Position numbers and translations under genes: made by a program
NCBI GenBank assembly: GCA_000743035.1
Contig: CP008936.1
Span: forward strand, 750,001 to 782,000
Direction: 5' to 3'
From: Candidatus Paracaedimonas acanthamoebae
Lineage (GTDB): Bacteria > Pseudomonadota > Alphaproteobacteria > Caedimonadales > Caedimonadaceae
Length of the DNA stretch: 32,000 nucleotides
Part shown: piece after piece, positions 3,101-24,641 of the stretch
Layout of the letters: every line of letters starts with the position of its first letter
Numbering within the stretch: position 1 is the first letter of the stretch
Notes under the pieces: model-generated
Told to the model about the DNA's origin: nothing
Seen by the model: only the letters and a program-made list of their open reading frames with translations
Databases searched by the model: none

Positions 3101-4096
3101 GCCTATGTTGGTTACTGTTTATTGACAGGCCTCCTGAAGATGCATCATTCAGGTATTGCCCATCTTGACGTCAAACTTGATAATTTACTTCTGAGCTGGG
3201 ATGGTGATGTTTGGGTAGCTGATATGGGATGTGCCGTTCAAAAGACGATTTTGTCAGGGGGGATTGGCGATTTTAGGAATTTTGATTTGGCGCGTTTAGA
3301 ACATTTACGCCATTTAGGGAAAAAGAAAAAAGGAGACCTTCGTGCAACTTTCAATGGTCATGCATCAGATAACTTTGCCGCGGGTCTCGCCATACTTCAT
3401 TTAATTCTTGGGGAGGAACATCCGTTTCAAGAATTGTTTGATCCGGTCATAGAAAAAAGGGCCAGCATTCCAAATTACATGCTTAACAAATGGACTCAAG
3501 AAACCTATGAAGCTGCGCTTGAAAAGGCTTTTGGTAAATCAAAAAATAATGATACCGGAATTTTCAAGGTGATTCGTGGATTAACTTTTACTAATCCTCA
3601 AGAGAGATGGTCAACTGAGAAAGCTCAAAAAGCACTTGAAAAACTTCTCCCTGAAGAAAGTGGTAAAAAGTTGTTTTCACAATTCGAAAAGAGGTGGCAA
3701 CAAATAGCAAGCCAATCGCAACAGGTAGAAAATCCCGAAGAAGGAAGTGATCTTTCTTCTAACTATCTATATAAGAAAGAGGCTATCTATTATCACGACA
3801 TCTTACAGGAAGAAAACCATTCTAGTGAATTTTATGGAAAAGACCTTTCTGTTTATGAGACTATGCAAAAGCCCTATGAAGAGGAAAATAAGCGTATTGG
3901 GGCGGCGAGTTCCTCAACCGATGTATATGTTGACACTCTAGAGAAACCAGAGGGAGGAGAACCTACTACTTATACAATCATTCCAGATGAAGAAGATGGG
4001 GCTACTTATACAATCCCAGATGCTTTTAAAAGTTCCCCTCCTCCGCGCCGTAATGGAAACCCAAGCAATACCCCCAACGAATGGGTCTATCAATAA
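101..4096 (+). CDS. Large membrane-anchored protein with C-terminal eukaryotic-like (Hanks-type) protein kinase domain
   Basis: 1331-aa ORF with AGGGGGA Shine-Dalgarno-like element just upstream of ATG 101. N-terminal signal-like segment (VLALLISIVSFQPLQASS). Pro/Ser/Thr stalk VPTPSPTPTSSGPTPTDQPSSGPSSSG (2258-2338), then Gly/Ala/Val TM helix IGIGVGAGVGGAALLTAIGVGVGCGVL (2357-2437). Kinase motifs: GGGNFGQV (2738-2761), VAVK, HLDVKLDN (3161-3184), DMG in place of DFG (3221-3229), NPQERWS (subdomain XI-like). Confidence 0.8.
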   Translation: MRSIKVLALLISIVSFQPLQASSSTPQQNSLESSLIVKSEPSSKESSGLWGQTKKFISLWFSSFRSSSSSPKNLLEHTENPNWWAASEKDDQPWAKEWSKLVGHVAEENAKQTRILLTQMVYRKGELEQSSDEYYQELAESFKKTPDFIKGQDINLISKLGSTGLGKRLISLVNRSINYLEDQHTAEGRSALIEYTRLLSDFYLSIEAEGIDDDHFDQDLFQQGYDYKNVLVKISKLKRHPGNLASLKKLIKDLYIKLDGGRLSELSHDTLSSLGIEFGQPHRRSSWLSSQKVGTGLLFLVVSSGMITAAAAARPPLLDAFCSTNEFNYGTCETSFSTPIGFDTEIASLKSNSFFQDIITNTITQTSRSSSISDTLDRLSSIGTQFYGEIITARTGSFSGGNVTSTMYFDIPPYLGMRDAPISSTQYDRITFNMTAMSDTTMQTINSYTRTGPMGPSYYGQIPNSERMILAITDVNQTWPIYGVVIDRPSGGVPTIIREGIITSTVQAVYPDSLSITPVNNVNPNGLLPVESVDSFVSSLYSGQVAGPDGLNPRPIAQYLEDIGFSTSSSFLAAKNCLESPGVSPLACSSQFAQNSGFTTALYVYATQPNSVVTLSRNLLQGTNYTEGTYQAGSGNVLETLMSYTWNPALGTAMRTNSTLPIPFSTLRGTLPLNQIEKIWIYNPDPANSELGYVVRTTQNASGTATSYYVVPGEGITTFVPTPSPTPTSSGPTPTDQPSSGPSSSGLSETAKIGIGVGAGVGGAALLTAIGVGVGCGVLKHKIKKSKLKDLEAGNNDIPLGPVTRGSTVTRENFAPTGKGIVSGISVTGTLNKNQYVLFFTVTEEEFDEIVRETGLKMQFTPEEKELKPGEKPKMNLILGGGNFGQVRIAKDLQDEKFVAVKIISGNEKVKSSRREGDMQYRLRDAFHVLPLDDYLYYAPSTDRAASTKLRKKAFGNTDHADEDLLLQFTPLATLGSGESLSYYLSFLKGKDDELRDKIVAYVGYCLLTGLLKMHHSGIAHLDVKLDNLLLSWDGDVWVADMGCAVQKTILSGGIGDFRNFDLARLEHLRHLGKKKKGDLRATFNGHASDNFAAGLAILHLILGEEHPFQELFDPVIEKRASIPNYMLNKWTQETYEAALEKAFGKSKNNDTGIFKVIRGLTFTNPQERWSTEKAQKALEKLLPEESGKKLFSQFEKRWQQIASQSQQVENPEEGSDLSSNYLYKKEAIYYHDILQEENHSSEFYGKDLSVYETMQKPYEEENKRIGAASSSTDVYVDTLEKPEGGEPTTYTIIPDEEDGATYTIPDAFKSSPPPRRNGNPSNTPNEWVYQ

Positions 4097-8076: not shown

Positions 8077-8851
8077 ATGAAAGCTAATTTATTATTGTTT
8101 TTAGGTGCGACCTTATTCCTTACTTATTTCAATGATCAAGTATGTGCAACTTGTTTAGAATCCTCGCAGTTATCAGAATCTCACAATTATGTAAGGTTTG
8201 TCCCGTCAGGCAATACTTCTCCCTCACAAGCGACTGGAATTGTTATTGAATTAGGCAGAGAGGAAGAATTCGAAATAAATTTAAATCTTCTCAAAAATAT
8301 ATCATTTGATATAGATCTTGCTGAACAATCCGACATAGAAGGTAAACTTATAAAGCTACAAGCTTATGCCTCTCTCATAAGTAGTCTTGATGTGTCTGAT
8401 AATTTTCTTGATAACTCAACTTTAGAACTGCTTCCTACAATTTAGTAAGCTAAGGAAATTAAATTTAGCTAATAATAGATTTGATGATAACGAATTAAAG
8501 GCTATTGCACTGCTATCAGGGATTACGGATCTTAGCTTGTATCATAATAAAATTACAGCAAATGGAATTCGTATGCTTGCAGATTTAAAAGAACTCACAA
8601 TACTTGATGTTAGTTGTACTTCAATGGGAGTTTCAGGAATTAAAACTATCCAAGAAACATTTCCTCATCTTATCTCTTTAAAAGCTAGAGGATGTGAATT
8701 AGAAGATCAATCGTTAGAGTATATCTTAGCTATGTCTCATCTCAAAAATATTGATATTTCTTCAAATAAATCTCTCAGTTCAAATGCTATGCAAGCATTT
8801 AGCACAAAAGCCTCTGAAAAAGGATTAACCATTGTCTCCAGTGGAACATAA
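8077..8851 (+). pseudogene. Leucine-rich repeat (RNI-like) secreted protein, interrupted by a frameshift near 8435-8445
   Basis: ORF 8077-8445 has a signal-like N-terminus and ends ...LDVSDNFLDNSTLELLPTI*. In the +1 frame the LRR periodicity continues without a start codon from ~8435: LQFSKLRKLNLANNRFDDNELKAIALLSGITDLSLYHNKITANGIRMLADLKELTILDVSCTSMGVSG... Confidence 0.65.
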
Positions 8852-9058: not shown

Positions 9059-10303
9059 ATGCACAAAACTCAACGACATGTTTTTATTGATTATTTGAGA
9101 GGTTTTTTGGTTGCGCTTGTGGTTTTAGATCATGCGTGCCATGCCTATACAGAACACTATTCTAAGTTTTGGTTTTTCCCGGATTTTGAGCACAGTATTA
9201 TCTTTGATATTTTTCATCTACATAATGACAGCTTTATGATGCCGTCGCTTTTCTTTTTAGCCGGGCTTTTTATCCTTCCTTCTTTGAAACGAAGAGGTTA
9301 TTTAAGCTTTGCAAAAGAAAGATTTTTGCGCCTTGTAATTCCTTATATTGTAGGACTTCCGCTCATTAGTCCCCTTCTCTCTTATCCTCGTTATGTTCTG
9401 AATGAAAATCCCAGCATTGGCTATTGGCAGTATGTTACAGAAGTATGGGTTCATCGTTTACAAGCTGGGCCATTTTGGTTTTTATATTACTTAGTTCTCT
9501 TAAGTACGATTACGGTTGTTTTATATGCGGTAGTTCCTAAGATCTTTACTTTTCTTGGGAAATTTGCTGAATGGCTTATTGCAAAACCGCTGCGTGGCTT
9601 TGCTGTTTTTTGTTTTATTAGTTCTCTTATTTTAAGCATTAGTGACCTCATTTGGGGAGCTCCTTGGTGGATTGGTTGGTGGGCAGACTATAAATTTTTT
9701 TATGTTCGTGGTTCTCGTTTTATTCTTAAGGCTTTCTATTTCTTTCTTGGGGCTGGTTTTTCGCAAATTGTCATTCTTGACAATGAAGCTTTCTGGGAAC
9801 AACTTAGCAATAATTGGCAAAAGTGGGCTCTCTTTACACTTGGAGTTGCGGCTTGCTATATGGGCTATACGTTAGAGTTTTTTGATGAAGGCGTTTATAG
9901 TGATCATATTCGCTACTATATCGCAGAGCAAAGGGCCTATAATGCTGACTGGGCTGACGTGCTAGTCGGTTTTTGGCCGATTTTCTTTGAACATGCTCCT
10001 AAAGTTTTACTTCGAACAACGCTGCTGGGGATTTTTATTTGTTCTCAACTTGTTACCTATTCAGCCGTTTTTTATCGTTTTCTGAATAAAGGCAGTCTTC
10101 AATGGGCCTCATTGGCTGCTGCAGCTTATGGGATTTATATTATTCATGAACCCTTTGTCGTCTGGTCGCATTGGTTCTTTTATGGAGGGCAAGCTCCGCT
10201 TATTATCCGTTTTATTGTATCTGGATTCGGGGCACTTTTTATTTCATGGTTGATTGTAAACAAAGTTCTTCTGCGTCTTCCAGGTTTTAAACGTATTTTA
10301 TAG
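9059..10303 (+). CDS. Acyltransferase family 3-like integral membrane protein (paralog 1)
   Basis: 414 aa with about 10 hydrophobic segments. N-terminal FIDYLRGFLVALVVLDHACHAY resembles the acyltransferase_3 / OpgC-like signature. GGAGG SD precedes the ATG. Confidence 0.8.
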   Translation: MHKTQRHVFIDYLRGFLVALVVLDHACHAYTEHYSKFWFFPDFEHSIIFDIFHLHNDSFMMPSLFFLAGLFILPSLKRRGYLSFAKERFLRLVIPYIVGLPLISPLLSYPRYVLNENPSIGYWQYVTEVWVHRLQAGPFWFLYYLVLLSTITVVLYAVVPKIFTFLGKFAEWLIAKPLRGFAVFCFISSLILSISDLIWGAPWWIGWWADYKFFYVRGSRFILKAFYFFLGAGFSQIVILDNEAFWEQLSNNWQKWALFTLGVAACYMGYTLEFFDEGVYSDHIRYYIAEQRAYNADWADVLVGFWPIFFEHAPKVLLRTTLLGIFICSQLVTYSAVFYRFLNKGSLQWASLAAAAYGIYIIHEPFVVWSHWFFYGGQAPLIIRFIVSGFGALFISWLIVNKVLLRLPGFKRIL

Positions 10304-10321
10304 CAAGAAGGGAAAAGCTTG

Positions 10322-11569
10322 ATGCAAGGACAGCGCTATATATTTATTGATTACCTGAGAGGGTTTATTTTTGCACTTATGGCAATCGATCATTCTTTGC
10401 ATGCATATGCGCAGAATTGGGGACAATTTTGGTTTATTCAAGATCACGATCGTAGTCTAATTTGGGATGCTTTCTACCTTTTTGATCAAAGCATTATCAT
10501 GCCAATGCTTTTCTTTATTACAGGGCTTTGGGTATTACCTTCTCTAAAAAAATATGGATTTCAAGCATATCTTCGTCGGCGCTTTGTAAAGTTAGGCATC
10601 CCTTTTATTATTTGTATTCCTTTAATTGTACCTTTAATGACGTATCCTCGCTATACCCTTACTGTAGATTCCGATATTAGTTATCTTGATTACTGGTTTA
10701 ATGTTTTCTTGAGCGGAAAAAAGCTTCAAGCAGGCCCTTTATGGGTTATGTATGGCATGTTTTTATACAGCATGATTTTAGTTGGCCTCAGTGCGCTTCC
10801 AGGCATCATGAATAAATGGAGTAACTTCGTTCGCTTGCTCGTTAACCGACCTCAGTTTGGTTTTATTTTTCTTTTTCTGCTAAGTGCTCTTATTTTAGGT
10901 ATGAGTGATCTTACTTGGGGGGCTCCTTGGTGGATTGGTTGGGGAGTTTTCTATCTTCCAGGCGCACGATTTTTGCTATATTTCTTATACTTTATGCTCG
11001 GAGCAGGCTTTAGTCAGGCGGGACTCTTAGAGGACCGTTTTTTTTGGAAGCGACTCTCTGATCGACTGCCATGGTGGGCGGGTATTATGGGGCTGTCTGC
11101 TTTAGCATATGTGGGATATTCTCTTATTTTTATGCATGATGGAGCTTATAGCGATGTGATTCGACATGCTTTTCATGAATTCTTTGCTCTTGGTAGTTCT
11201 TGGAGTGAAATGCCTGAATTTGTAAATCAACAAGGTTGGCAATTAATTGAGAGTCATGCGCCTCGTGTTTTAATTCGAACAACTTTGCATGGAACTTTAT
11301 GCCTTTTCCAGGTTCTAACTTTGTTGGCTTTTTCTTATCGCTATTTTAATAAAGAACACCCCGTGTGGAGTTCGCTTGCTCGGAGCTGCTATGGCATCTT
11401 TTTAACTCATGAAGCCATGGTTATTTGGCTTCAGTATTTTCTGATTGGCATTGAGCTTCCTCAGATTTTAAAAATCATCATTATTGCTGGCCTTGGTTTT
11501 GGAGGCTCCTGGCTCTTAACTGAGAAATGGTTGCTTAAAATCCCCGTTTTAAAGAAGGTTATTGGCTAA
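10322..11569 (+). CDS. Acyltransferase family 3-like integral membrane protein (paralog 2, tandem duplicate)
   Basis: Colinear with the previous protein. Shared blocks: FIDYLRGF, MP.LFF..GL...PSLK, QAGP.W, WGAPWWIGW, LGAGFSQ, AP.VL.RTTL.G. I prefer ATG 10322 over TTG 10319. Its stop overlaps the convergent MBL gene stop by 3 nt. Confidence 0.8.
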   Translation: MQGQRYIFIDYLRGFIFALMAIDHSLHAYAQNWGQFWFIQDHDRSLIWDAFYLFDQSIIMPMLFFITGLWVLPSLKKYGFQAYLRRRFVKLGIPFIICIPLIVPLMTYPRYTLTVDSDISYLDYWFNVFLSGKKLQAGPLWVMYGMFLYSMILVGLSALPGIMNKWSNFVRLLVNRPQFGFIFLFLLSALILGMSDLTWGAPWWIGWGVFYLPGARFLLYFLYFMLGAGFSQAGLLEDRFFWKRLSDRLPWWAGIMGLSALAYVGYSLIFMHDGAYSDVIRHAFHEFFALGSSWSEMPEFVNQQGWQLIESHAPRVLIRTTLHGTLCLFQVLTLLAFSYRYFNKEHPVWSSLARSCYGIFLTHEAMVIWLQYFLIGIELPQILKIIIIAGLGFGGSWLLTEKWLLKIPVLKKVIG

Positions 11570-12909: not shown

Positions 12910-12985
<76 letters not shown>

Positions 12986-13748: not shown

Positions 13749-14043
13749 TCACTTAAGTACTGTATCAGGGGTTTCTTTGCATTTCTTGGCTAATCGGGTA
13801 ACCTCATCAATATGTGCTGGATCTTCAGGATCTGTTACTTCCTTACGCACCTGCAACAATTCTTCAATGATTGCATCCATATCACTGGTATCAAATACTG
13901 AATAATCATGAAGTTCCACTTCTCCTAAATAAGGAAACTCTGGGTTCTTATATCCTTTCACAAGGTAAGATCCATTGTTCTCTCGTGTGGTTCTTTCAAT
14001 CAACTTATCATCCTTAGACTCTAAAATTAATATGGATATTCAT
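13749..14043 (-). pseudogene. Orphan immunity-gene copy (paralog of 14153-14458) with a 1-nt frameshift near its 5' end
   Basis: Its protein aligns with the functional copy: NNGSYLVKGYKNPEFPYLGEVELHDYSVF...MDAIIEELLQVRKEVTDPEDPAHIDEV.RLAKKCKE. The ATG at 14043-14041 corresponds to the paralog's start but is out of frame. The orphan has an A4 run at 14023-14026 where the functional copy has A3. Confidence 0.6.
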
Positions 14044-14124
14044 TTATCCCACCTTATATTTAAATGGCCCAGGATAGGCATTAATTAGATTTTCTTCCTT
14101 ATCCGTGAGGATGTAATAGGGTGA
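14044..14124 (-). pseudogene. Orphan remnant of the toxin C-terminal tip (last ~26 codons)
   Basis: The minus-strand translation SPYYILTDKEENLINAYPGPFKYKVG* aligns with the end of the 2233-aa toxin (SIITILTDAEGNLVNVFPGPLKYMVK*). It is bounded upstream by an in-frame stop and has no start codon. Confidence 0.6.
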
Positions 14125-14152: not shown

Positions 14153-14458
14153 TCATACCCCAGAGAAAACAAGTGCCGTCTCAGGCATCTCTTTGCATTT
14201 CTTCGCTAATCGAATGATATCATCAATATGAGTTTGGTCCCCAGGATCTGCAACTTCCTTACGCACACGCAATAATTCTTCAATGATGGCATCCATATCC
14301 TTATCAAAAAAAACTGAGTAATCATCTATTTCGACTTCCCCTAAATAAGGAAAAACAGGATTGTTCTCTCCTTTCACAAGATAAGAAGTATTGTTCTCTT
14401 TTGTAATGCTTTCTATTAATCTACGATCTTTATTTACTAAAGCAATATCGATATACAT
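14153..14458 (-). CDS. Putative cognate immunity protein of the CdiA-like toxin
   Basis: 101-aa acidic ORF whose ATG lies 1 nt after the toxin stop (TGA-a-ATG). This is the position of cdiI genes. A paralog sits directly downstream. Confidence 0.65.
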   Translation of the reverse strand: MYIDIALVNKDRRLIESITKENNTSYLVKGENNPVFPYLGEVEIDDYSVFFDKDMDAIIEELLRVRKEVADPGDQTHIDDIIRLAKKCKEMPETALVFSGV

Positions 14459-14459
14459 T

Positions 14460-17400
14460 TCATTTCACCATATATTTTAATGGGCCTGGAAAAACATTAA
14501 CTAAGTTTCCTTCTGCATCTGTTAATATTGTAATAATAGAAGTTGTATTGCTTCCATGTTGTGATGGTAATTTACCAATAATTGTACCAACGTCTACTTC
14601 TCGAACATACCTTCCACTTTCAACTATTTTAGTAATAGGCGTTTCAATAGTTTTTTTATCACTTAAAATAGATCTTACTTCTTCTTTAGGAATTGTAAAC
14701 TGAGACTTATTTGTTTTATCGAGGTTCATATGTTTACGCCATACTTTATCAATACCAGGCTTAGTCTCTCCTTCTACGCGCTTATTGGGTTTACCTGTTC
14801 CCTCTATAATATTAATTCTTGATTGAGCGCGAGGGGGCGCATAAATATCTAAATCATTCCCAGGAACGCTAGCTTTAGTAATGCCAGGAGCCTCTCTTCT
14901 TGTCAGCTTCTGCATCCCTTTTGACCAAGTTTCTGAGAGGAGCCCATCAGCGGTGAGGTAAAGTTCTTTGGCTTTTGTAAATCCTTTGCTTAAGGGGGCA
15001 AACACCTTAGCTATCACTTGTGCAAAGGCAGGGTTTTGGGCAATATAAGCTTGCCATACCATCTCAGCCATAGGACCAGAAAGCTTTGCAACTTTATAGA
15101 CAACTTTACCAGCCCCAAGGGTTACTATCGTTATAGCCCCATCAACAGCTACTTTCTGAAGTGCTGCTGCAGGGCCTTCTCTCTGCGCAGTTTTAATCAC
15201 ATCATAAACTTCATAGGCGGCAAGCCCTATCCCAACCGCCAGCATGATAGCATTATTTTCAACTGCATTTGTACTTGTATGTGCCCCAATACTTGGATCT
15301 TGCCCCAAAAGCGCTGCGACGGTGGCACCACTGAGCTTCGCGAAGGCAAGTTCCTTGGAAAGAGCATCATAAAGCTCAAGCTGGAACTTCCCATCCTTTA
15401 AAGACTGTCCTTCTTTTTCCGCCTTGGCCAGAATATCGAGCGCTTTATTTTTTGCTATACCTCGGCATTCCTCCATCACCACTTCAGAGACAATGCTTCC
15501 AATTGCTCCAGACATAAGGCCTCTTGCGGATGAGTCTAAAAACCATCCTGAAAGAGCGCCAACACTTCCATGTAAGGCTTTATGTTCAAAGTAACCCATT
15601 GGTTTGCTTGGATCGGCATATATGCGGCCTATATGATAGGATGCATACGATGCAAGCGTATCAACCCCTAAGTTCTTAACTCCATTCTTAACAGCTTCTT
15701 CCACAGAGATACGCCCTATCAGGCATTGAAGCGGCGTCTCAACAACTGTTTTTAAAGCATTCGCTTGTAAGAAATCCATAAACTTGACTTGCTTTTGCGG
15801 ATCTGTAAGCGCTGTTAAACCTGGGTGCAGATCAATCTTCAAAGCCTCGCTTATATTTTGACAAAGACCTGCACTGGTCATGGTAACAGCGAGAGAGCGC
15901 ATGCTTGCAGGAGAGATAAGCTCTTTACCTGCTTGAATGGGATTTCCTGTTCTTAAGACAGAACAAGTAAGTTGACTACAAATGGTCGAGAATCCCGCAT
16001 TGGCCACAGCCATCCCGGTAGATGAAAGTGTCACAGCAGGCACCATCACTGCTGCGCCTGCCGCTGTTGCAGCTGGCACTACGCCACAGAGAGATTCACC
16101 TAGAGAATTAATTAAAGAAGCCCCCCACCCTTGCGTTGCCAGGGTTACGCCTAATGCGACAACGACAAGGGCTTCATTTGGAATCAGCTGTTTATGATGC
16201 GCCCAACTTTTTTGCCAACTCTTCAGGTGATAGGTTGTCTCAGCAAACTTCCCAATGATTTGCGTGCGATCTTTATTCCAATCAACGGATTGAAGCTTGA
16301 TTTCTCCTTCATCAACTTGACGAATGATCTGATTAACAAGCAATCGACAAGGTTGCATGACTTCATAGCCGCCTTTACATCCCACATCACTTTTTAAAAA
16401 GGGACTCTTGGTGATGATTTGATGGAAATACTCAAGCCAACTTATCGAAGGCGCAAATGTGGCTCCTTCTTTCGTGTTGTCATAAATAATATCCGCAATA
16501 AAGTCGGTACCTCTGTAAATGGCGCTTTCTGTGTTCGTATGAATGGCCGGGGCACTGAGAGTAGTGGGAGCAAAATTTGCGCTTTGTCTAACACTGTGGC
16601 TATGCGAAGAAGAAAATAGACCATCCGTTTCGCTCTCTGTTTTGGTTGTGTTAATACCAACTGCTGCATGGGTTTCAAGGTCTTTTCCTTGGAAGATGAT
16701 TGCCACAATAGACTTGAGGAGAGAACCGGTAATGGTTGTCTTGGCTGTGTCGCCAGATAAGATCGTGACCTCTTCTTTCTCTGAGACAAGTTCAGAAGGA
16801 TGCGAAATTGTGGTTTCTTGGATGGTATGCGTCGTCGTATCCCCTTTGAAGAACCCGCCCTTTTTTGTATGGTAAGAGTGCTCAGTCCGCTTTAGCTGAG
16901 CTGCTTCAATATCTGAATTTCCCTCAAGTGAGCCCGCAATAAGCCGCAGTAAAGAACGCAGCTTTGTAGCTGTCATTTGGAAGCCTTTCTTGCCAAGAGC
17001 GATAACCTCCCCTTCTTCGCTCTCTAAACTTGTAGGAGAATCGAGAGATTCTTGTGTCCCTTTGCCATGAAAATGCGTACTGATGGTCGAAAGGAATGAA
17101 AGATGATCTTCAGAGAAAAAGTGCATCCATTTCTTTATCTTAATGGTCGTATCTTTAACAGTAAGAGGACCTTGGTTGTAAACATCCATTGTGTCGGCAC
17201 TCATTCCTTGAACGGAGTTCATGTCTTCTTGAGCAACAAATAAACTTAAAATCTGATGGATCTTATCACCTACCTGGCTTAAGCCAGGGAGAATCATTGA
17301 ATGCCTTGCCTTCTGGACGTCTTCGAGCGTTACAATCGCTTTTTTCTCATCCTGGCCAAAGCTGATTCCGTTTTGGATGAGACTTTGAAAGAGGGTGTCT

Positions 17401-20400
17401 TTATTTGAGTGATTAATGCTCACTCTGCCCGCCACCTGAGAAAGGGTTGCTTGTGTAAATAAGTTATACAATCCCAAAGATAACGTTTGTAAGGGGCTTA
17501 AAAGACGACTTGGATCTAAGGGGATCTGATAAAGATGGTGATTTTCTCGGGTACTCAACATGATCATTTGATCCCCTACTAAAGGAACATAAGGACTTCC
17601 AAGAGGAACTGTTGTAAGGACTTCGCCTATCGGTGTCAGACGCAGGAGACTGTTTCCTTTAGCTTGTGCTTGAATAGCACTTGTTAAATTCACTAACGCT
17701 GGCCCTGAGAGTGTTATTTGGGAACGCATTTGTTTGGAGTTATCAAAGAGGCCTGATCCAGAAGCTTGGATGGTAATCGTGCCTGAATGCTTGTTTCCAG
17801 ATAAAACGTAATTCCCGGTATTAATGTGGATGGCGATAGCAGATTGAACAATACAAGGATAGCTAAAAATTATCCGTGTGAACCATTGTGTCCCATTAGT
17901 CCACTTATGAATACAATTGGCAGGCTCTTCAATATAATTCGAGAGGCTTATTTTATCGTTTATAGCTATGCCGTTCACATAAATTTTTCCTTGTGTACGA
18001 ACAGTACTCCCACAATTAGTGACTTTATGCGTATTAATATGAATATCACCAAGGGAATCCAAGGTTGCTGGACCTGAAGTAGGCCTTTCCCATCCTTCAC
18101 CATCAAAAGAGCTTGAATCAGGTATAAATTTAGGGGGCTTTCCTGTATGTTTGTATTCATAACCTTGTATGAGGGTAGTTCCTAAAGAAAATATCTTTCC
18201 GGCTGTATTTTGAATATTTTTTGTAGCTTTAAAAGTGCTTCCTTTACCACTGAAGACGGTTCCACAGTCCACAATAACATTGCTTGCAGAGTCTATGATA
18301 ATATTATCTTCTGAAGCGAGATAAGCTTCGTTGCATTTAGAGGCATCGTCAAATAGGTGCTCTCTAGTATGCGTTGCTCTCCTTGCAGTCGTAGGACTAA
18401 GATCTGCAGTCGAAAAACTTGTATTTGCATAATAATATTTTTTAAAATCCTCATCTATTCCTTTCTGGGGAGCCCCGACGAGAGCATTTCCTTTTGTTGC
18501 TTTTATAAGTGTGGGCCCTTTGCCATACATTTTCCCAAAGCGATTATCGATACTATGAGCTGTGACAGTAAGGGATCCTTCGGTGGAAGCAATTTCGCCC
18601 ATAACTGTATTACTACTTCCGCATGTCAGCGGACCGTTGACATCGAATGTTAGAGTGGGGGCTGTAAACTTATGCGTAGTTGTAAAGAGACCACCCACAT
18701 ATAAAATGAGATGACCAATATTGGCAAAGTCATAGTTTTTGGTTGTGGTTATGGCAGGGGTATAAAAAACAACTTTTCCTTGTTTATTCGTACTTACTCT
18801 AGAAAGATCTGCAAGCGTTCGGCTGCTGCGATAGCGGGATGTGAAAAGTATTCCTTCTTGTGAACGGATGGCTTTGGGTAAAGTTTGAACATCATACGTT
18901 AAATCTTTTTGACTTTCGATCTCTCCTTGTGAGCTATAATTCTTACGTGCATCACCTTTTAGAACAAGGCGGTTTGCTGTAGTTGAAGTGTCATCCTCTG
19001 TGAAATGCCATTCGTTGTCTTGGAAGCTGATTAAACTATTATTCTTTAAAGTACCTATGATCGTATACTGGCCACTCCTCAGAATAAGACTTTTATTATT
19101 GATTAGATTAGTAAAAAATAGAGAACTATTTTGAAGTTCAAGGGTTTGATCATTTTGAATGTCAAGAGGAGAAGTACAACTTATATGCTCAAAGAGCCAC
19201 TGCCCATAATTATGAAATTTCGTTGGCTTGAATTCTAAAGTCCCATTCCGCCAGACAATGGTGCCCTGGTTAGAAATGGGGCCTGAATCTAACTTTAAAT
19301 GACCTTCATGAAACCATTTTCCTTCATTGTTAAATTCTCCAGCTTCTTGAAGCAATGAAAACTTTTGTTGTCCATTAGTTTCCCCTGTGAGTAATGATCC
19401 CTTATTCAGGATATGGCTCTTGGTCACTTTAATCGCTTCTAAAGCTTCAATAACTCCTTCCGTAAGGTTGTGGAGTTTTCCCCCTACAATTGCCAAAGTG
19501 GTGAACATCATTTTACCTGCATTTTCTATGAGGCGCTGACTCACATCTATGGAACTTGATTTTAAGGTTCCCAAATTATGAAGCGTATACGAAAGAGCAT
19601 CCTCCGGCCTTCCTTGAAAAGATAAGTGATCGACGAAAATATCCGCATCCCGATCGTTAACAAATGACTTATTCTGTCCTCCTAAACTAACTCGTTTCCC
19701 TCTGACCAAAGCTCGAGGGCCTTTGCTTTGGGTTTTATTTATAAATTGCAGGATTGAAAGTGTTGCTGGCTCCTTTAGATCTAATAGATCCAAAGTATGG
19801 TAATTCTTGAATAGGCCATTGCCGATTAATTGTTGGAGTGAAATTTCTCCTTCATTGGTCATCTCTCCTTGTACATTCAGGATTAAGCCTTCTCCCTTAA
19901 TTGTTCCTGTATTATGTCCCTTGGCTAGACTTAAGTGTTTAGTCTCAATGTCTCCTTGATTCATAAGCTCGGAGTTGACAGCGAGCTGATCAAGGATTCG
20001 GAGTGAACTTAAAGATGAATTGATAAAAGGTTTCCCCTTAACCACCATTTTATGAGCTTGCCAAAATCCATTATTTGAAGCCTGGCGCTTAAGCGTTGCT
20101 TCTTTAACGTAGAAAGCGCCTTCATTTACCATAGAAGCCCCCGAGGGAGATGAACTTAGATCAGCAGATAACTCTTCTGACACTCTGACTTCAGCTTCTT
20201 CACTATTTTTAAAGAGTTGGTTAGTGGATGCGATATGAAGGTAGGTACTCTCTATTTTTGCGCCTTCAGCTGTAGGCATTCTTTTTTCATTGGTGATTTG
20301 ACTCAAACCCAGCACCGCGCGTTCAGCTTGAGTTCCTTGAAACTGACAATAGGCATGGTTAGTAAGCTGCCCCTCACCGGTTAATCGTTTAACGCGTAAC

Positions 20401-21161
20401 CCTCCCTCATTAATGGCTTCATGAAAGATATGGAGGTGATCTGCAACAACGGCATGGGAAAAATGTGTTTTTTGAGATTTTAAGGTTAAGGATTTGGCAT
20501 TGAGTGTTTGGATGAAAAGTTCTTGTGATGTTTTAAGAACGAGATCATAAGCTGACTGAAATGGAGATGTAGCTAATTGATCAAAAAATATTGCACCATC
20601 TTTTAAGATATTAACGGTGGCAAAGCCTGGAATATACCACACCATGCTATCATTTTTATAGTTAACTAAGGAAGCTCCCTTGCATAAAGACAAGAAGGTA
20701 TCGGCTTGGGCCTCAGCTACTGGTGTAAAAAATGGCGTGATCCGGTCTTGTTCAACACTTGCGGTATAAAGGGTCTCAAAAGATTTTTGGGATGTTTTTG
20801 ATTTTCGTGAGACTTTAAACTGAATCGCTTTATTTTCTGGATTAAGCGTTTTAATTGAAATTTTATATTGGTAGCTCCCTAACGTTGTGGGTTGGGATTT
20901 CTCTAAAATTCGTTGTGCTTTTACCATCTCATCAACTGATGGGATGTAGGATGCTTTTATAGCTGACACGTCCTCTATAGGAAGAGGTCCTTGAATGATG
21001 TCCTTAGACGATAGAGTTGAATCTTTGAACCTAGGAAAATGTTTATTGTATGTGCTTGAAGAATGATCAACATCACAAGCAAGTGCAAATGGAGTCAGTG
21101 ATTGTATTGAGTAAGAGACCAAAACTAAGCGCGCAATCACTTTGAAAAACTTATTTTGCAA
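14460..21161 (-). CDS. CdiA/FhaB-like polymorphic toxin (beta-helical repeats, pretoxin region, VENN motif, variable C-terminal toxin)
   Basis: 2233-aa ORF. TTG start at 21161 with GGGAGG 8 nt upstream and a signal-like N-terminus (VIARLVLVSYSIQSLTPFALA). Long Asn/Gly/Thr-rich repetitive region. FHA-2-like segments (YHTKKGGFFKGDTTTH, TDGLFSSSHSHS). Gly/Ala/Ser-rich pretoxin (DUF637-like) region. VENN at 15252-15263 (GTTGAAAATAAT on the minus strand), followed by a 263-aa tail. Confidence 0.8.
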   Translation of the reverse strand: MQNKFFKVIARLVLVSYSIQSLTPFALACDVDHSSSTYNKHFPRFKDSTLSSKDIIQGPLPIEDVSAIKASYIPSVDEMVKAQRILEKSQPTTLGSYQYKISIKTLNPENKAIQFKVSRKSKTSQKSFETLYTASVEQDRITPFFTPVAEAQADTFLSLCKGASLVNYKNDSMVWYIPGFATVNILKDGAIFFDQLATSPFQSAYDLVLKTSQELFIQTLNAKSLTLKSQKTHFSHAVVADHLHIFHEAINEGGLRVKRLTGEGQLTNHAYCQFQGTQAERAVLGLSQITNEKRMPTAEGAKIESTYLHIASTNQLFKNSEEAEVRVSEELSADLSSSPSGASMVNEGAFYVKEATLKRQASNNGFWQAHKMVVKGKPFINSSLSSLRILDQLAVNSELMNQGDIETKHLSLAKGHNTGTIKGEGLILNVQGEMTNEGEISLQQLIGNGLFKNYHTLDLLDLKEPATLSILQFINKTQSKGPRALVRGKRVSLGGQNKSFVNDRDADIFVDHLSFQGRPEDALSYTLHNLGTLKSSSIDVSQRLIENAGKMMFTTLAIVGGKLHNLTEGVIEALEAIKVTKSHILNKGSLLTGETNGQQKFSLLQEAGEFNNEGKWFHEGHLKLDSGPISNQGTIVWRNGTLEFKPTKFHNYGQWLFEHISCTSPLDIQNDQTLELQNSSLFFTNLINNKSLILRSGQYTIIGTLKNNSLISFQDNEWHFTEDDTSTTANRLVLKGDARKNYSSQGEIESQKDLTYDVQTLPKAIRSQEGILFTSRYRSSRTLADLSRVSTNKQGKVVFYTPAITTTKNYDFANIGHLILYVGGLFTTTHKFTAPTLTFDVNGPLTCGSSNTVMGEIASTEGSLTVTAHSIDNRFGKMYGKGPTLIKATKGNALVGAPQKGIDEDFKKYYYANTSFSTADLSPTTARRATHTREHLFDDASKCNEAYLASEDNIIIDSASNVIVDCGTVFSGKGSTFKATKNIQNTAGKIFSLGTTLIQGYEYKHTGKPPKFIPDSSSFDGEGWERPTSGPATLDSLGDIHINTHKVTNCGSTVRTQGKIYVNGIAINDKISLSNYIEEPANCIHKWTNGTQWFTRIIFSYPCIVQSAIAIHINTGNYVLSGNKHSGTITIQASGSGLFDNSKQMRSQITLSGPALVNLTSAIQAQAKGNSLLRLTPIGEVLTTVPLGSPYVPLVGDQMIMLSTRENHHLYQIPLDPSRLLSPLQTLSLGLYNLFTQATLSQVAGRVSINHSNKDTLFQSLIQNGISFGQDEKKAIVTLEDVQKARHSMILPGLSQVGDKIHQILSLFVAQEDMNSVQGMSADTMDVYNQGPLTVKDTTIKIKKWMHFFSEDHLSFLSTISTHFHGKGTQESLDSPTSLESEEGEVIALGKKGFQMTATKLRSLLRLIAGSLEGNSDIEAAQLKRTEHSYHTKKGGFFKGDTTTHTIQETTISHPSELVSEKEEVTILSGDTAKTTITGSLLKSIVAIIFQGKDLETHAAVGINTTKTESETDGLFSSSHSHSVRQSANFAPTTLSAPAIHTNTESAIYRGTDFIADIIYDNTKEGATFAPSISWLEYFHQIITKSPFLKSDVGCKGGYEVMQPCRLLVNQIIRQVDEGEIKLQSVDWNKDRTQIIGKFAETTYHLKSWQKSWAHHKQLIPNEALVVVALGVTLATQGWGASLINSLGESLCGVVPAATAAGAAVMVPAVTLSSTGMAVANAGFSTICSQLTCSVLRTGNPIQAGKELISPASMRSLAVTMTSAGLCQNISEALKIDLHPGLTALTDPQKQVKFMDFLQANALKTVVETPLQCLIGRISVEEAVKNGVKNLGVDTLASYASYHIGRIYADPSKPMGYFEHKALHGSVGALSGWFLDSSARGLMSGAIGSIVSEVVMEECRGIAKNKALDILAKAEKEGQSLKDGKFQLELYDALSKELAFAKLSGATVAALLGQDPSIGAHTSTNAVENNAIMLAVGIGLAAYEVYDVIKTAQREGPAAALQKVAVDGAITIVTLGAGKVVYKVAKLSGPMAEMVWQAYIAQNPAFAQVIAKVFAPLSKGFTKAKELYLTADGLLSETWSKGMQKLTRREAPGITKASVPGNDLDIYAPPRAQSRINIIEGTGKPNKRVEGETKPGIDKVWRKHMNLDKTNKSQFTIPKEEVRSILSDKKTIETPITKIVESGRYVREVDVGTIIGKLPSQHGSNTTSIITILTDAEGNLVNVFPGPLKYMVK

Positions 21162-21381: not shown

Positions 21382-21759
21382 CTAATTGACCTTTATGGCC
21401 ATGCAAGTTCTCAAGCTATTCTTAATCTCTTTAATACGTTTATCTTCTTCAGAAGCACAGATCCACAGACAGCCAGCTGGATTTCTAAAGTATTAGGGGA
21501 GAAGGATGAAACAGAAATTGTTGAAAATCTCTCCTATGGCGCAAACACCATTCAAGGTGGCGTATCCTTAAATCAGCAAACGCATACTAAGCCCATTATC
21601 ATTCCCACAGAAATCCAAAATTTAAGAGACCTTGAGGCCTATATCAAACTCACAGGCAATTATCCTATTACTAAGCTCAAGATGCCCTACCAGCCTGAAC
21701 CACAAAGTAAGATCGAAGCGTTTGATTTCTCCCTAATCACAGGAGCTGACCATGCCTGA
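21382..21759 (+). pseudogene. 3' fragment of a type IV coupling protein gene (TraD/TraG/VirD4 family)
   Basis: Open frame with no start codon: ...YGHASSQAILNLFNTFIFFRSTDPQTASWISKVLGEKDETEIVENLSYGANTIQGGVSLNQQTHTKPIIIPTEIQNLRDLEAYIKLTGNYPITK... This matches my recollection of the C-terminal region of T4CPs. Only ~125 codons remain of an expected several hundred. Confidence 0.6.
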
Positions 21760-22336
21760 AATGCAAGATCCCTTTGAGATGAACTACTATAAGCTCTCAC
21801 TTCTTAAAGAAGAGATGGCCTCTCAAATTAAAGACTTACAAAAGACGATAGACGAGGTTAAAGCAGGAGCCCGCATGTTCATGGTGCAACACGAAGAGTT
21901 TAAAACTATTGCCTCTCATGTTCAAAAGAGCCTGAAGGCTAGTATCCTAGATGCTTCTCAGCAAATGGGGCAAGAGGTAACCGATAAGATTGAAGAGCAA
22001 ATAAAGGAAACATTCGAGGAAGCTGCCCAAAATTTACTGACCACCTCTCAAAGTACTGAAGGGACACTCCTTAAAGCACAAAAGGCTCTATCTTTGAGAA
22101 ATTGGCTTATAGGCGCAACAACGCTTGTAGCCTCCCTTCTAACAGCGCTTTCTCTTAGTTATTTTTACCTCGCCAAAATAGAATCTATAGCCACACGGCA
22201 GCTTGTAAAGACTTATAAATATGGCCTTTTGCTTAAAGACATTTGGCCTAAGCTCAGTGCTAAAGATCAAAAGAAATTCAGCCAGTTCTTGGAAGACAAA
22301 GAGCATAAATTTAAAAACCGTAAAATACGTTACTAA
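21752..22336 (+). CDS. Coiled-coil protein with one TM helix, hypothetical (likely a former tra-operon gene)
   Basis: 194 aa with a heptad-like charged N-terminal half and a TM segment LIGATTLVASLLTALSLSYFYL. Its ATG overlaps the coupling-protein remnant stop (ATGCCTGA). Confidence 0.55.
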   Translation: MPEMQDPFEMNYYKLSLLKEEMASQIKDLQKTIDEVKAGARMFMVQHEEFKTIASHVQKSLKASILDASQQMGQEVTDKIEEQIKETFEEAAQNLLTTSQSTEGTLLKAQKALSLRNWLIGATTLVASLLTALSLSYFYLAKIESIATRQLVKTYKYGLLLKDIWPKLSAKDQKKFSQFLEDKEHKFKNRKIRY

Positions 22337-22477
22337 AGGAAAGCCATATACGCAAGGTCGTTCTCTAAGTATCTTTCATATCTTTCCAATGTGTGCCAAT
22401 ATGGGATAAATAAATGCTTGTATAATAGTACCCTTCCCGATATGTTCATATAATCTTTTAAAAATGCGGAAGAAACA

Positions 22478-24031
22478 ATGTTGGGTTCATTAAAAACTAG
22501 AGCTTGGATTATATGGTTATCATTAAGCATCATCAGCTTAATTAATTATCCCACATGCGCGAGTAATTCATTTGAAACAATTAGAATCTCAGAATTTGAT
22601 AGTAACAAATTAAAGAGGCAAAATGTAAAGGATTGTACTATTTCAGACCCAACATCTGGCTATAATTCATGCTATGGAAATGGAATGATTTTCACGGTTT
22701 TTCCTCCGCCAAAAGAAGACGATGGCAGATATAAAGATGCAACCATGGTACAAGAATTTTACAAAAAATTAACTGATTCAGGTGTAAAGCAAAATGTCGT
22801 TGTCGCTCGAGCAGTATTTAAGTTCAACCACTTAGAAAATCTGGGTTCTTTCACTCTTCCTTACATATTTTTTAGTGGGAGCCCAGATGAAGTAAAGTCA
22901 ACAATTCCATTAAATAAAAAGGAAGTTGAGACAACTATAATAGCACTCCCTACTTGTTTAAAAACTAAGCTCAAAGAACAAATTGAAGGAAGTTCTCTAG
23001 AATCTATTGCCAGAGAGTGTTTGAAAGATTTCTTCCTACCTGCTTATAAAAACCCAATATTCATTTTTGATAGTAATGCTAGTTCTATTGATCAATTAAA
23101 GGACAGCATCCTAAATTTCAGAGGCTTTATTTATAGTCATTTTATTGATGAAGAATCTGAAGGCTATAAACTTTTTATGCAAAACAATCCCCATACAACC
23201 TTCATAAGTATACTTAGAGGTATTGCTTCTTATTCCAAAGGATGCTCTGGGGATAAAATGCAAAAGCAAAGTGAGCCAGCTTTAAATCTTGCTTTGCAGG
23301 AAATCTATTTAAGGCAACCTGCTACAGAAAAATTGCTTAAAGAAATATTTGATGAAGATAGTCTGGATGAATTATTTGGACAAGGCTCCCATGGAGAAGG
23401 TAATAAAAAGAAAGGGATGAGTTTTTGCTTTCATCAATCTGAGCAAGCATTATTAGGCTACTTGCTAAAAAAGGATGGCAATAAAAAACATCATAATGAA
23501 TTTATTTCAATATTAATTGAATTCTTGAAATATAATCTTAATTCTCATTTTGACCAATATAAGGAAGTGTTAAGTGTAACATCCTCTTCCGCTCAATCTG
23601 GAGCACCCACGATTGCAGATGATCTTCCTTCCTTAAGCGAGATAGTACAGAGTCCCGTTGAACAACAAGGATCTAACGTGATATTAGTTGCAAAGTGTGA
23701 CATTGATACAAATCTTGAGCTTTTTTCACCAAGACATATTTGTAAATATTGCAGAGGTACATTTTATATATGCCAACAAAAAATCCTTAATCTCATAAAG
23801 GATGTTTTGCAAAATAACGGGCTTAATATACTTGAAGCTGAACAAAAAAATAAAAAAGTCTCCCAAGAAGATAATTTATATGATAAGGTAGTTACACACT
23901 TTAAGCTACCAATCAAACCTAAATCAATAATAGTCAAATATATGGGAAGGATAAACTTAAGCATATTTGCTACTTCTCATCAACCAGCCGAACCTGCTTT
24001 AATGGGAAAAATGGAGACAATACATGAATAG
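22478..24031 (+). CDS. Secreted orphan protein with a deaminase-like motif arrangement (speculative)
   Basis: 517 aa. Signal-like N-terminus AWIIWLSLSIISLINYPTCASNS and GGAAG SD. C-terminal third contains MSFCFHQSEQALLGYLL and, about 105 aa later, SPRHICKYCRGTFYICQQ. Confidence 0.65.
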   Translation: MLGSLKTRAWIIWLSLSIISLINYPTCASNSFETIRISEFDSNKLKRQNVKDCTISDPTSGYNSCYGNGMIFTVFPPPKEDDGRYKDATMVQEFYKKLTDSGVKQNVVVARAVFKFNHLENLGSFTLPYIFFSGSPDEVKSTIPLNKKEVETTIIALPTCLKTKLKEQIEGSSLESIARECLKDFFLPAYKNPIFIFDSNASSIDQLKDSILNFRGFIYSHFIDEESEGYKLFMQNNPHTTFISILRGIASYSKGCSGDKMQKQSEPALNLALQEIYLRQPATEKLLKEIFDEDSLDELFGQGSHGEGNKKKGMSFCFHQSEQALLGYLLKKDGNKKHHNEFISILIEFLKYNLNSHFDQYKEVLSVTSSSAQSGAPTIADDLPSLSEIVQSPVEQQGSNVILVAKCDIDTNLELFSPRHICKYCRGTFYICQQKILNLIKDVLQNNGLNILEAEQKNKKVSQEDNLYDKVVTHFKLPIKPKSIIVKYMGRINLSIFATSHQPAEPALMGKMETIHE

Positions 24032-24641
24032 AAAAGTTAAACGGTATTTTAGAATATTTTTATTTACATTTCTTGCTGTGCCTCAAAACCACTCTTTTGC
24101 AAGTAAGCATTGTGATCTAGGAGACATCTATCATCATGGCCCTAAAGTAATTTGTTTAGGGGAGCGGCCTAATTTAAGCTCAGATCAGTTAGACCACTTC
24201 TTTGAAAAACATTTCGATAAGAATGCAAAAATATTAAGTTTAAGGTGCCAAGAAGAATTAACAGATGCTCACTTAAAGTGGTTATCAAAACTACCACAGA
24301 CAGCCACAATTATAGAACTGAACCTTAGCAGGACTAGTATTTCTTATGATGGAATAGTGCACTTATGGAAATCAGAATTTTTGGGTTCCGTTAGAGATGA
24401 GCAACCAATATATGAAAGCTATTATAATACGCCTATATCCGTAGTAAAAGTTGAAATAGGCCACACAAAAGCTCTAAAACAGTATAAAAAGCATTTGAAA
24501 AATGGGAAAAAAATATTTCCCTTACCTTTGCGTAATAAGTTTGAAATCCGCTATGTACACCCAGCAATTGATGTTGAATATAAAGAGATTGGCCTTAAAC
24601 AAATTCTCCTCACTGACCATGGTGAGCCTATTGGAAATTAA
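24024..24641 (+). CDS. Secreted orphan protein with 1-2 LRR-like units
   Basis: 205 aa. Its ATG overlaps the upstream stop by 8 nt (ATGAATAG). Signal-like FRIFLFTFLAVPQNHSFAS. LRR-like ILSLRCQEELTDAHLKWLSKL...IIELNLSRTSISYDGIVHL. Confidence 0.6.
   Translation: MNRKVKRYFRIFLFTFLAVPQNHSFASKHCDLGDIYHHGPKVICLGERPNLSSDQLDHFFEKHFDKNAKILSLRCQEELTDAHLKWLSKLPQTATIIELNLSRTSISYDGIVHLWKSEFLGSVRDEQPIYESYYNTPISVVKVEIGHTKALKQYKKHLKNGKKIFPLPLRNKFEIRYVHPAIDVEYKEIGLKQILLTDHGEPIGN

Follow-up and report, generated by a model that had tools for sequence, protein, structure and literature searches.

We analysed a 32,000-nucleotide (nt) stretch of contig CP008936.1 from Candidatus Paracaedimonas acanthamoebae (positions 750,001 to 782,000 of the forward strand). 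This whole stretch is called the window here and is numbered from its first nucleotide. In it, the gene for a giant CdiA-like protein ends in a toxin domain, referred to below as the tip, and is followed by a small immunity gene and by the remains of a second module of the same kind. The features of the locus are listed below, from the toxin gene to the downstream remnant.

14460-21161, minus strand: gene for a giant CdiA-like polymorphic toxin of 2233 amino acids (aa); start codon TTG, N-terminus resembling a signal peptide (open reading frame (ORF) translation and Pfam)
15504-16001, minus strand: DUF637 domain, aa 1721-1886 (Pfam PF04830, E = 1.2e-6, 28.9 bits, cut-off 26.6)
15249-15347, minus strand: PT-VENN pre-toxin domain, aa 1939-1971 (Pfam PF04829, E = 1.7e-4, 22.1 bits, cut-off 20.3)
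14838-15251, minus strand: hydrophobic and helical region after VENN, with linker, aa 1971-2108; candidate cytoplasm-entry domain
14463-14837, minus strand: toxin tip domain, aa 2109-2233; predicted RNase of BECR or BECR-like fold, with the stop codon (TGA) at 14460-14462
14153-14458, minus strand: cognate immunity gene (101 aa; pI 4.56) whose ATG is separated from the toxin TGA by 1 nt
14044-14112, minus strand: orphan remnant consisting of the final 22 codons of a diverged toxin tip (ILTDKEENLINAYPGPFKYKVG and stop), identified by aligning this DNA to the toxin gene at its 3' end
13749-14043, minus strand: second (orphan) immunity copy, 71% identical in aa sequence (BLASTP 59/83 identities, E = 4e-43)

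A GGGAGG Shine-Dalgarno-like site is located 8 nt before the TTG start of the 2233-aa ORF. Only DUF637 and PT-VENN scored above the Pfam gathering score in the encoded protein. The VENN motif occupies aa 1967-1970 (window 15252-15263), and its first base at 15263 is exactly the end coordinate that a first-pass annotation of this DNA had given. The TPS domain (PF05860) had no Pfam match in the full 2233-aa protein or in its first 500 aa (E <= 1); in contrast, it scores E = 3.7e-52 in P0097, a true CdiA that carries the same tip family. The FHA repeats (PF05594/PF13332) were likewise unmatched by Pfam in the 2233-aa protein, and the NCBIfam model fil_hemag_20aa stayed below its cut-off (E = 0.015). 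Nor did Pfam detect a cdiB/tpsB gene (POTRA, ShlB domains) among 25 window ORFs, which include all plausible window genes of at least 80 aa; the window extends at least 10 kb on each side of the toxin gene. Two other DUF637 giants, P0034 and P0066, are also without a TPS match and have similar signal-like N-termini. Because neither a TPS domain nor cdiB was found, we call the carrier CdiA-like and regard the label "CdiA" as unproven. The earlier naming of the tail as a CdiA C-terminal region (CdiA-CT) stands as far as the DUF637/PT-VENN pre-toxin region that demarcates a variable CT is concerned, but it does not extend to a TPS domain, FHA repeats or a cdiB in the window. The carrier is thus only in part a CdiA, with DUF637, PT-VENN, a variable CT and an immunity gene.

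The tail after VENN is 263 aa long with a pI of 9.6. Its first ~110 aa are hydrophobic (grand average of hydropathy +0.52) and contain two segments that exceed 1.4 in Kyte-Doolittle hydropathy, aa 1971-1989 and 2004-2022. From its hydrophobicity and position this region may be an entry/translocation subdomain, an assignment that is unproven. For the stretch of ~135 aa that separates VENN from the tip, no homologue turned up in plasmids or in a set of 290 tip-bearing or related proteins. When the window protein was compared by BLAST with 17 large carriers, the alignments started at aa 2092-2109 with two exceptions (2038 and 2072), and stand-alone relatives of 119 aa start exactly at the PRAQSRINI motif. 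The conserved tip starts at about aa 2109 (PPRAQSRINI), measures ~125 aa and is basic (pI ~9.5). The first-pass annotation had rightly described a basic C-terminal tip, but its start lies at ~2109 instead of 2120 or 2136 and its length is ~125 aa instead of ~110. The bipartite tail that it proposed agrees with our results: homology to other carriers is confined to the tip, the preceding ~135 aa are common to none of them, and base composition changes at the same point.

This change is a fall in GC content at third codon positions (GC3). The tip has 33.9% GC and 18% GC3, and the immunity gene has 35.6% and 29%, in a window of 38% GC. The post-VENN region (45.5% GC, 35% GC3) and the pre-toxin region (45.8% and 37.5%) are richer in GC, and the GC3 of the shaft region is in their range (~35-37%). 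The compositional break is found at ~14838, which is the aa 2108/2109 boundary. Since the homology boundary and the fall in GC3 both lie at the start of the tip, the exchangeable cassette consists of the tip and the immunity gene, with its junction at ~14838 and not at VENN. The tip and immunity gene are a swapped-in cassette.

The downstream remnant records an earlier state of the locus. The tip remnant directly abuts the orphan immunity copy, and positions 13755-14025 form a direct repeat with 14171-14441 (76% nt identity over 271 nt). The orphan immunity copy carries a 1-nt insertion (+1 frameshift) after codon ~6 and runs into a stop codon at position 10 of its reading frame; from a TTG at 14003 an ORF of 84 aa begins anew. 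The frameshift sits in a T-run and could instead be a sequencing error. The orphan module at 13749-14112 is what remains of a C-terminal region displaced by a related cassette. In the proposed course of events, the tip and immunity cassette would have entered by recombination at the start of the tip and not at VENN. An older tip, cut short, and an older immunity gene with a frameshift would have stayed behind downstream of the insertion.

An initial query with the last 122 aa of the tip returned only six relatives. A profile built from these relatives was run exhaustively against 1.84 billion representative proteins and gave 634 clusters (50% identity) at E <= 1e-3, of which 411 were at E <= 1e-10. 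Homologues of the tip reach E = 1e-49 to 1e-22 and those of the immunity protein 4e-45 to 2e-22; the two are therefore not chance ORFs. The tip match ended no more than 7 residues from the C-terminus in 72 of the 73 top matches examined, in proteins of 100-3800 aa. The carriers include a CdiA with TPS domain and FHA repeats (P0097), RHS proteins (P0047 and the fragment P0201), PT-TG proteins (P0061 and fragments including P0251), stand-alone proteins, and DUF637-only giants that resemble the window protein (P0034, P0054 and P0066). Named sources are Pseudomonas aeruginosa, Burkholderia multivorans, Yersinia rohdei, Photorhabdus bodei, Paenibacillus, Desulfosporosinus, Ralstonia GMI1000, Rhizobium rhizogenes and Paraburkholderia phymatum. 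The public records of the family are labelled "hypothetical", "adhesin" or "filamentous hemagglutinin". Judged by these matches, the tip belongs to a large family that already exists in databases in uncurated form and is no orphan sequence. The earlier suggestion of a new toxin/immunity family is therefore overstated for the tip, which is represented by 634 clusters across many genera. A tip common to unrelated delivery regions, a paired immunity gene and an orphan module together make this a polymorphic toxin system in the sense of Zhang et al. (2012).

Nine polar residues are kept in at least 90% of 235 near-full-length domains (R2115, N2117, H2144, S2153, R2187, T2207, T2214, D2215 and N2219), and all nine are present in the window tip, which from this full set is likely to be active. 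H2144 is mostly preceded by K or R in the family (K2143-H2144 in the window protein). The C-terminal strands have no conserved His. A second His (GWxHxxxxH) occurs in one subfamily and is absent from the window protein and from most members.

The immunity protein has 21 homologous clusters (E = 4e-45 to 2e-22), none of them annotated. The homologues with a named source come from Ca. Paracaedibacter symbiosus and, on a plasmid, from Ca. Paracaedimonas acanthamoebae. When genome contigs were scanned for the family, an alignment-based query found Ca. Paracaedibacter symbiosus only, and a single-sequence query found nothing. As a single sequence, the immunity protein gave no match at threshold in Pfam, NCBIfam or the PDB. 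The family-wide Pfam and NCBIfam scans covered 22 immunity and 38 tip members; DUF6673 matched 3 of the 22 immunity members weakly and below threshold (best E = 4.9e-4), and a PDB search with the immunity family profile gave nothing meaningful. The family is small and unannotated. Members of it are encoded directly 3' of tip genes in at least five other loci, listed here.

L001, Pyrinomonadaceae metagenome-assembled genome, 8001-8722: stand-alone 119-aa toxin and 119-aa immunity protein, with 2 nt between their genes, in a neighbourhood of PIN/BrnT toxin-antitoxin genes
L003, Ca. Paracaedibacter symbiosus: 284-aa toxin protein with an unrelated N-terminus
L006 and L007, two similar metagenome contigs: 2228-aa giant (P0034), with RebB R-body genes nearby
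L008, JGI metagenome contig: immunity homologue present, toxin gene truncated where the contig ends

The acidic, tightly coupled immunity ORF described in the first-pass annotation was thus borne out by its pI of 4.56, its 1-nt spacer and its homologues 3' of the tip at other loci. Other branches of the tip family are paired differently. In Rhizobium rhizogenes (L004, 3324-3695) and Ralstonia GMI1000 (L005, 3345-3698), tips of the second-His subfamily are followed by ~120-aa proteins of an unrelated immunity family with the motif WVPEQxEDI. It is normal in polymorphic toxins that one toxin fold is matched with several immunity families. The Ralstonia L005 locus is without annotation in the PLSDB table.

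Several of these loci have neighbours of their own. The L001 pair is without a delivery domain and follows a secreted DUF8575 protein; it could reflect a toxin-antitoxin-like use or an orphan cassette. At L006 (ENA contig NODE_89, 36 kb; 9107-10112), three RebB genes are found ~3 kb downstream of P0034 and its immunity gene, which suggests a Caedibacter-like killer symbiont. At L008 (772-1720), an Ntox24(weak)/Imm53 pair and a transposase come after the immunity homologue, which makes this a typical orphan array.

We then compared the tip with known families and folds. Neither the window protein nor any of up to 48 relatives had a match at threshold in Pfam, NCBIfam, PADLOC or PHROGs, and PDB chains gave no match at E <= 10 to either the tip sequence or the tip family profile. 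This agrees with the initial failure to place the tip in a named family. The recurring Pfam matches below threshold were Ntox50 (E = 0.012), DUF4258 (0.058), PBECR3 (0.001) and PBECR1 (0.13), all of them BECR-fold families. The Ntox50 (PF15542) match was seen in 2 of the 38 tip members. Membership in Ntox50 itself was rejected: E = 0.012 was the best Pfam score, the window protein had no match, and of the Ntox50 set (H, S, K, T, H, K, HxVP, with three catalytic His) the C-terminal His residues are absent.

An AlphaFold model of the tip built from 121 sequences reached a predicted local distance difference test score (pLDDT) of 86 and a predicted template modelling (TM) score of 0.79; an alignment of 7 sequences had given an unusable pLDDT of 52. 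The model has an N-terminal segment and helices followed by a four-strand meander, and the conserved N-terminal SRIN segment is modelled at pLDDT ~90 as a beta-bridge before the helix. The top Foldseek match in the PDB was 9v8i_B, the C-terminal domain (CTD) of YxiD (probability 0.99, E = 4.4e-3, TM 0.43/0.49, 18% identity). A chain of a Serratia CDI system (7m5f_C) and colicin D tRNase domains were found lower in the list at E > 0.3 (colicin D > 1). Against BFVD, the top match was to a MuF-type "minor capsid protein" at its C-terminal end (probability 0.96, TMq 0.50, root-mean-square deviation 3.6 Å over 99 columns), and a phage protein named "Colicin D" was also returned.

We consider it probable that the locus encodes a polymorphic toxin-immunity module carried on a giant, Sec-signal-bearing CdiA-like protein, and that the tip is a BECR or BECR-like RNase neutralised by the 101-aa protein. 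The small BECR-like RNase that the first-pass annotation had offered as a guess fits the AlphaFold model, the Foldseek matches and the sub-threshold Pfam matches. It appears to be the best-supported reading of the tip, with structural matches that are weak to moderate and a predicted catalytic set unlike that of the nearest structural neighbour. In this mechanism, the ~135-aa hydrophobic helical region after VENN would serve delivery, and the tip would cut an RNA of the translation apparatus, most likely tRNA and possibly rRNA. Catalysis would be of the acid-base type around K-H2144, with R2187, S2153, T2207, T2214 and D2215 as other candidate catalytic residues. The acidic 101-aa protein would be co-translated with the toxin and would neutralise it by binding its basic face, as the pairing pattern and the solved BECR complexes suggest (PMC9086364). 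It is possible, and we put it forward tentatively, that the tip represents a large clade of BECR or BECR-like RNases with a single-His set (K-H, R, S/T, T-D, N) that would differ from those of Ntox50, EndoU, colicin D and SRLase1, and with at least two unrelated, undescribed immunity families, found here on a TPS-less and cdiB-less giant of a probable protist endosymbiont, in which case the RNA target and the export route may be new.

Several observations weigh against this explanation. The searches gave no sequence-level link from the tip to any characterised nuclease, and experimental work on a member of the tip family was not found in the literature. The Foldseek matches are moderate only (TM <= 0.5, none at E <= 1e-3), and the query is itself a predicted structure. 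The two essential His residues of YxiD-CTD, H521 and H528, are without counterparts in the tip, which has T2207, T2214-D2215 and N2219 there. Neither a TPS domain nor a CdiB was found for export of the carrier. Finally, the BECR superfamily includes ParE, which is not a nuclease (PMC9086364).

In one alternative, the tip has a BECR-type scaffold but no nuclease activity, being a ParE-like gyrase poison or a protein of another activity, or the Foldseek matches are a coincidence at the level of the fold. TM values of at most 0.5, sequence identity of no more than 18% and a catalytic set unlike that of every characterised relative are in line with this. The invariant His, Arg, Ser/Thr and Asp are, on the other hand, typical of acid-base RNases, all characterised BECR-fold CdiA-CTs are nucleases (PMC9086364), and the polymorphic-toxin BECR clades are given as RNases (Zhang et al., 2012, PMC3482391), so that we regard a non-nuclease as very improbable. 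Another nuclease family could also be concerned. The tip might be a diverged bacterial EndoU (PF14436, Tox-EndoU), a His-His-Lys, metal-independent tRNase that cuts the anticodon loop, like CdiA-CT(STECO31) or MafB(MGI-1 NEM8013). EndoU is itself a BECR clade, one member of the tip family (P0183, A0AAW6BGG5, Photorhabdus bodei) is named "Bacterial EndoU nuclease domain-containing protein" in UniProt, and the conserved set of Tox-EndoU (H, H, [SNT], [SNT]; Zhang et al., 2012, PMC3482391) can be set beside the invariant His of the tip, the second His of one subfamily, S2153, T2207 and T2214. The family nevertheless has a single invariant His, the second being absent from the window protein and most members. 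PF14436 was matched by none of the 48 members scanned (E <= 1 to 10), P0183 included, and EndoU membership was rejected at the sequence level. Foldseek placed no EndoU structure in its top 50 matches, and the tip family profile found no chain at E <= 10 in the PDB, which we take to include EndoU toxins such as 5HKQ. EndoU is also larger than the window tip and consists of two alpha/beta subdomains. We judge an EndoU identity to be quite unlikely. A similarly low probability is given to a place in the SRLase1/STox4 "BECR-like" superfamily, in which case the tip would cleave rRNA (e.g., the sarcin-ricin loop), possibly with EF-Tu as cofactor, and not tRNA. The preprint on this superfamily describes fusions to PT-VENN, FHA, RHS and LXG (10.64898/2026.09.18.752725), and the SRIN segment of the tip is confidently modelled as an N-terminal beta-bridge; but when the residue patterns are compared, R70, D72, H85, H97 and N99 of SRLase1 mismatch R2187, T2207, T2214-D2215 and N2219 in set and spacing, and the tip family has no His after the helix.

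The biochemistry could also be as proposed for the BECR-type RNase and the role different. In an intracellular protist symbiont, the toxin might act on the eukaryotic host or serve addiction/retention, and not contact-dependent competition between bacteria. Among named organisms, the immunity protein has its closest homologues in Ca. Paracaedibacter symbiosus and Ca. Paracaedimonas acanthamoebae, both Holosporales protist symbionts, a related locus stands beside RebB R-body genes, and the window encodes a Ser/Thr kinase-domain protein and a leucine-rich repeat (LRR) protein, together with neither a CdiB nor a TPS domain in the carrier. Such symbionts are reported to have polymorphic toxin systems with orphan modules, and for those of a Paracaedibacter-like symbiont a role in host addiction was proposed (PMC8163844). 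Free-living bacteria, however, carry the same tip on classic TPS/FHA and RHS proteins, and a cognate immunity gene implies intoxication of self or kin and therefore a bacterial target. We consider a host-directed role unlikely on balance.

The remainder of the window, part of a 1.72-Mb contig, was examined with Pfam as well. A 1331-aa protein with a protein kinase domain (Ser/Thr; Pkinase, E = 5.7e-13) is encoded at 101-4096 (plus strand), and a small protein with LRRs at 8537-8851 (plus strand). Kinase and LRR domains are common in intracellular protist symbionts. Tandem paralogous genes for Acyl_transf_3 membrane acyltransferases are located at 9059-10303 and 10319-11569 (plus strand), and other window genes encode GltX, CysS, UDG and AroK. 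Three ORFs (194, 517 and 205 aa; 21752-24641, plus strand) are upstream of the toxin gene and divergent from it, the last two overlapping; none had a family match. A tRNA-Ala(GGC) gene (12910-12985, plus strand) is found ~115 nt from the DUF2628 gene that closes the toxin locus and may therefore mark a site of island insertion. A tRNA-derived direct repeat bounding an island beside this tRNA gene was looked for at the other end and none was found. A promoter and terminator scan gave a signal no better than in shuffled sequence.

The arrangement of toxin, immunity gene and orphan remnant is ordinary for polymorphic toxins, and the general picture of these systems is unchanged by our analysis. 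The tip domain, however, is widespread and uncurated, and its immunity family is small and without annotation. A model of the tip family together with one biochemical characterisation would annotate hundreds of loci in several phyla, including those of Pseudomonas aeruginosa, Burkholderia multivorans, Ralstonia and Yersinia. The unusual set of conserved residues could show another way in which a small BECR scaffold cuts RNA, and the GC3 break indicates that cassette exchange can happen at the boundary of the toxin domain instead of at VENN. If the source is an intracellular symbiont without CdiB, the locus also bears on how and against whom such bacteria use polymorphic toxins.

Among the closest known systems is YxiD-CTD/YxxD of Bacillus subtilis 6633 (Ntox50, PF15542; 9v8i), listed together with NmMafB2-CT2 (8HHJ). 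YxiD-CTD is a BECR-fold, metal-dependent tRNase of the Ntox50 family with an active site of K446-H447, H521 and H528 (PMC12700104). It resembles the window tip in being a small basic C-terminal toxin, it is the best structural match of the model, and its K446-H447 corresponds to a K-H dipeptide in the tip, K2143-H2144. Both have a small acidic immunity protein, putative in our case, encoded immediately downstream (PMC12700104). The two toxins share no detectable sequence similarity, however, and the family profile misses 9v8i at E <= 10. Because the two C-terminal His residues of Ntox50/YxiD are missing from the tip family, the chemistry of YxiD is not simply transferable. The window immunity family is unrelated in sequence to YxxD, which is Sm-like, and delivery also differs, with LXG and the type VII secretion system (T7SS) for YxiD and a PT-VENN giant protein for the window tip.

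The known BECR tRNases of CdiA-CT type that we compared are those of E. coli NC101 and 3006, K. pneumoniae 342 and P. aeruginosa PABL017, with colicin D in addition. The window system shares with the CdiA-CTs the VENN motif, an N-terminal region, a small C-terminal nuclease-like domain and a downstream immunity gene, and the predicted model of the tip shares with them and with colicin D a helix and a 4-strand meander. It differs from them in having no sequence match and a carrier without a detectable TPS domain or adjacent cdiB. BECR toxins of CdiA-CTs are usually recognisable as BECR by structure only (PMC9086364).

Two further groups, Ntox41 and SRLase1, are similar in their carriers. Ntox41 is a predicted BECR family with [RK]H, [KR] and [ST]xxP motifs on T5SS (type V secretion system), T7SS, RHS and FilH carriers, and no immunity family is given for it (PMC3482391). 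Set against this description, the tip family is similar in RKH/KKH, in a conserved basic residue, in a C-terminal motif like [ST]xxP (LVTATPG in many members) and in having the same range of carriers and phyla. A Pfam model of the name Ntox41 was not among the matches. Most tip members read T-F-P-G, that is, [ST]xP, unlike the [ST]xxP given there for Ntox41. The tip family may be Ntox41, as far as such a comparison by description goes. SRLase1/STox4 is an RNase of the sarcin-ricin loop that depends on EF-Tu and defines the "BECR-like" superfamily, with R70, D72, H85, H97 and N99 as its residues (10.64898/2026.09.18.752725). Like the window tip, SRLase1 is a widespread, formerly uncharacterised small polymorphic-toxin domain found on PT-VENN, FHA and RHS-type carriers with a downstream immunity gene, and it can have an extra N-terminal strand, where the window tip has its modelled N-terminal SRIN beta-bridge.

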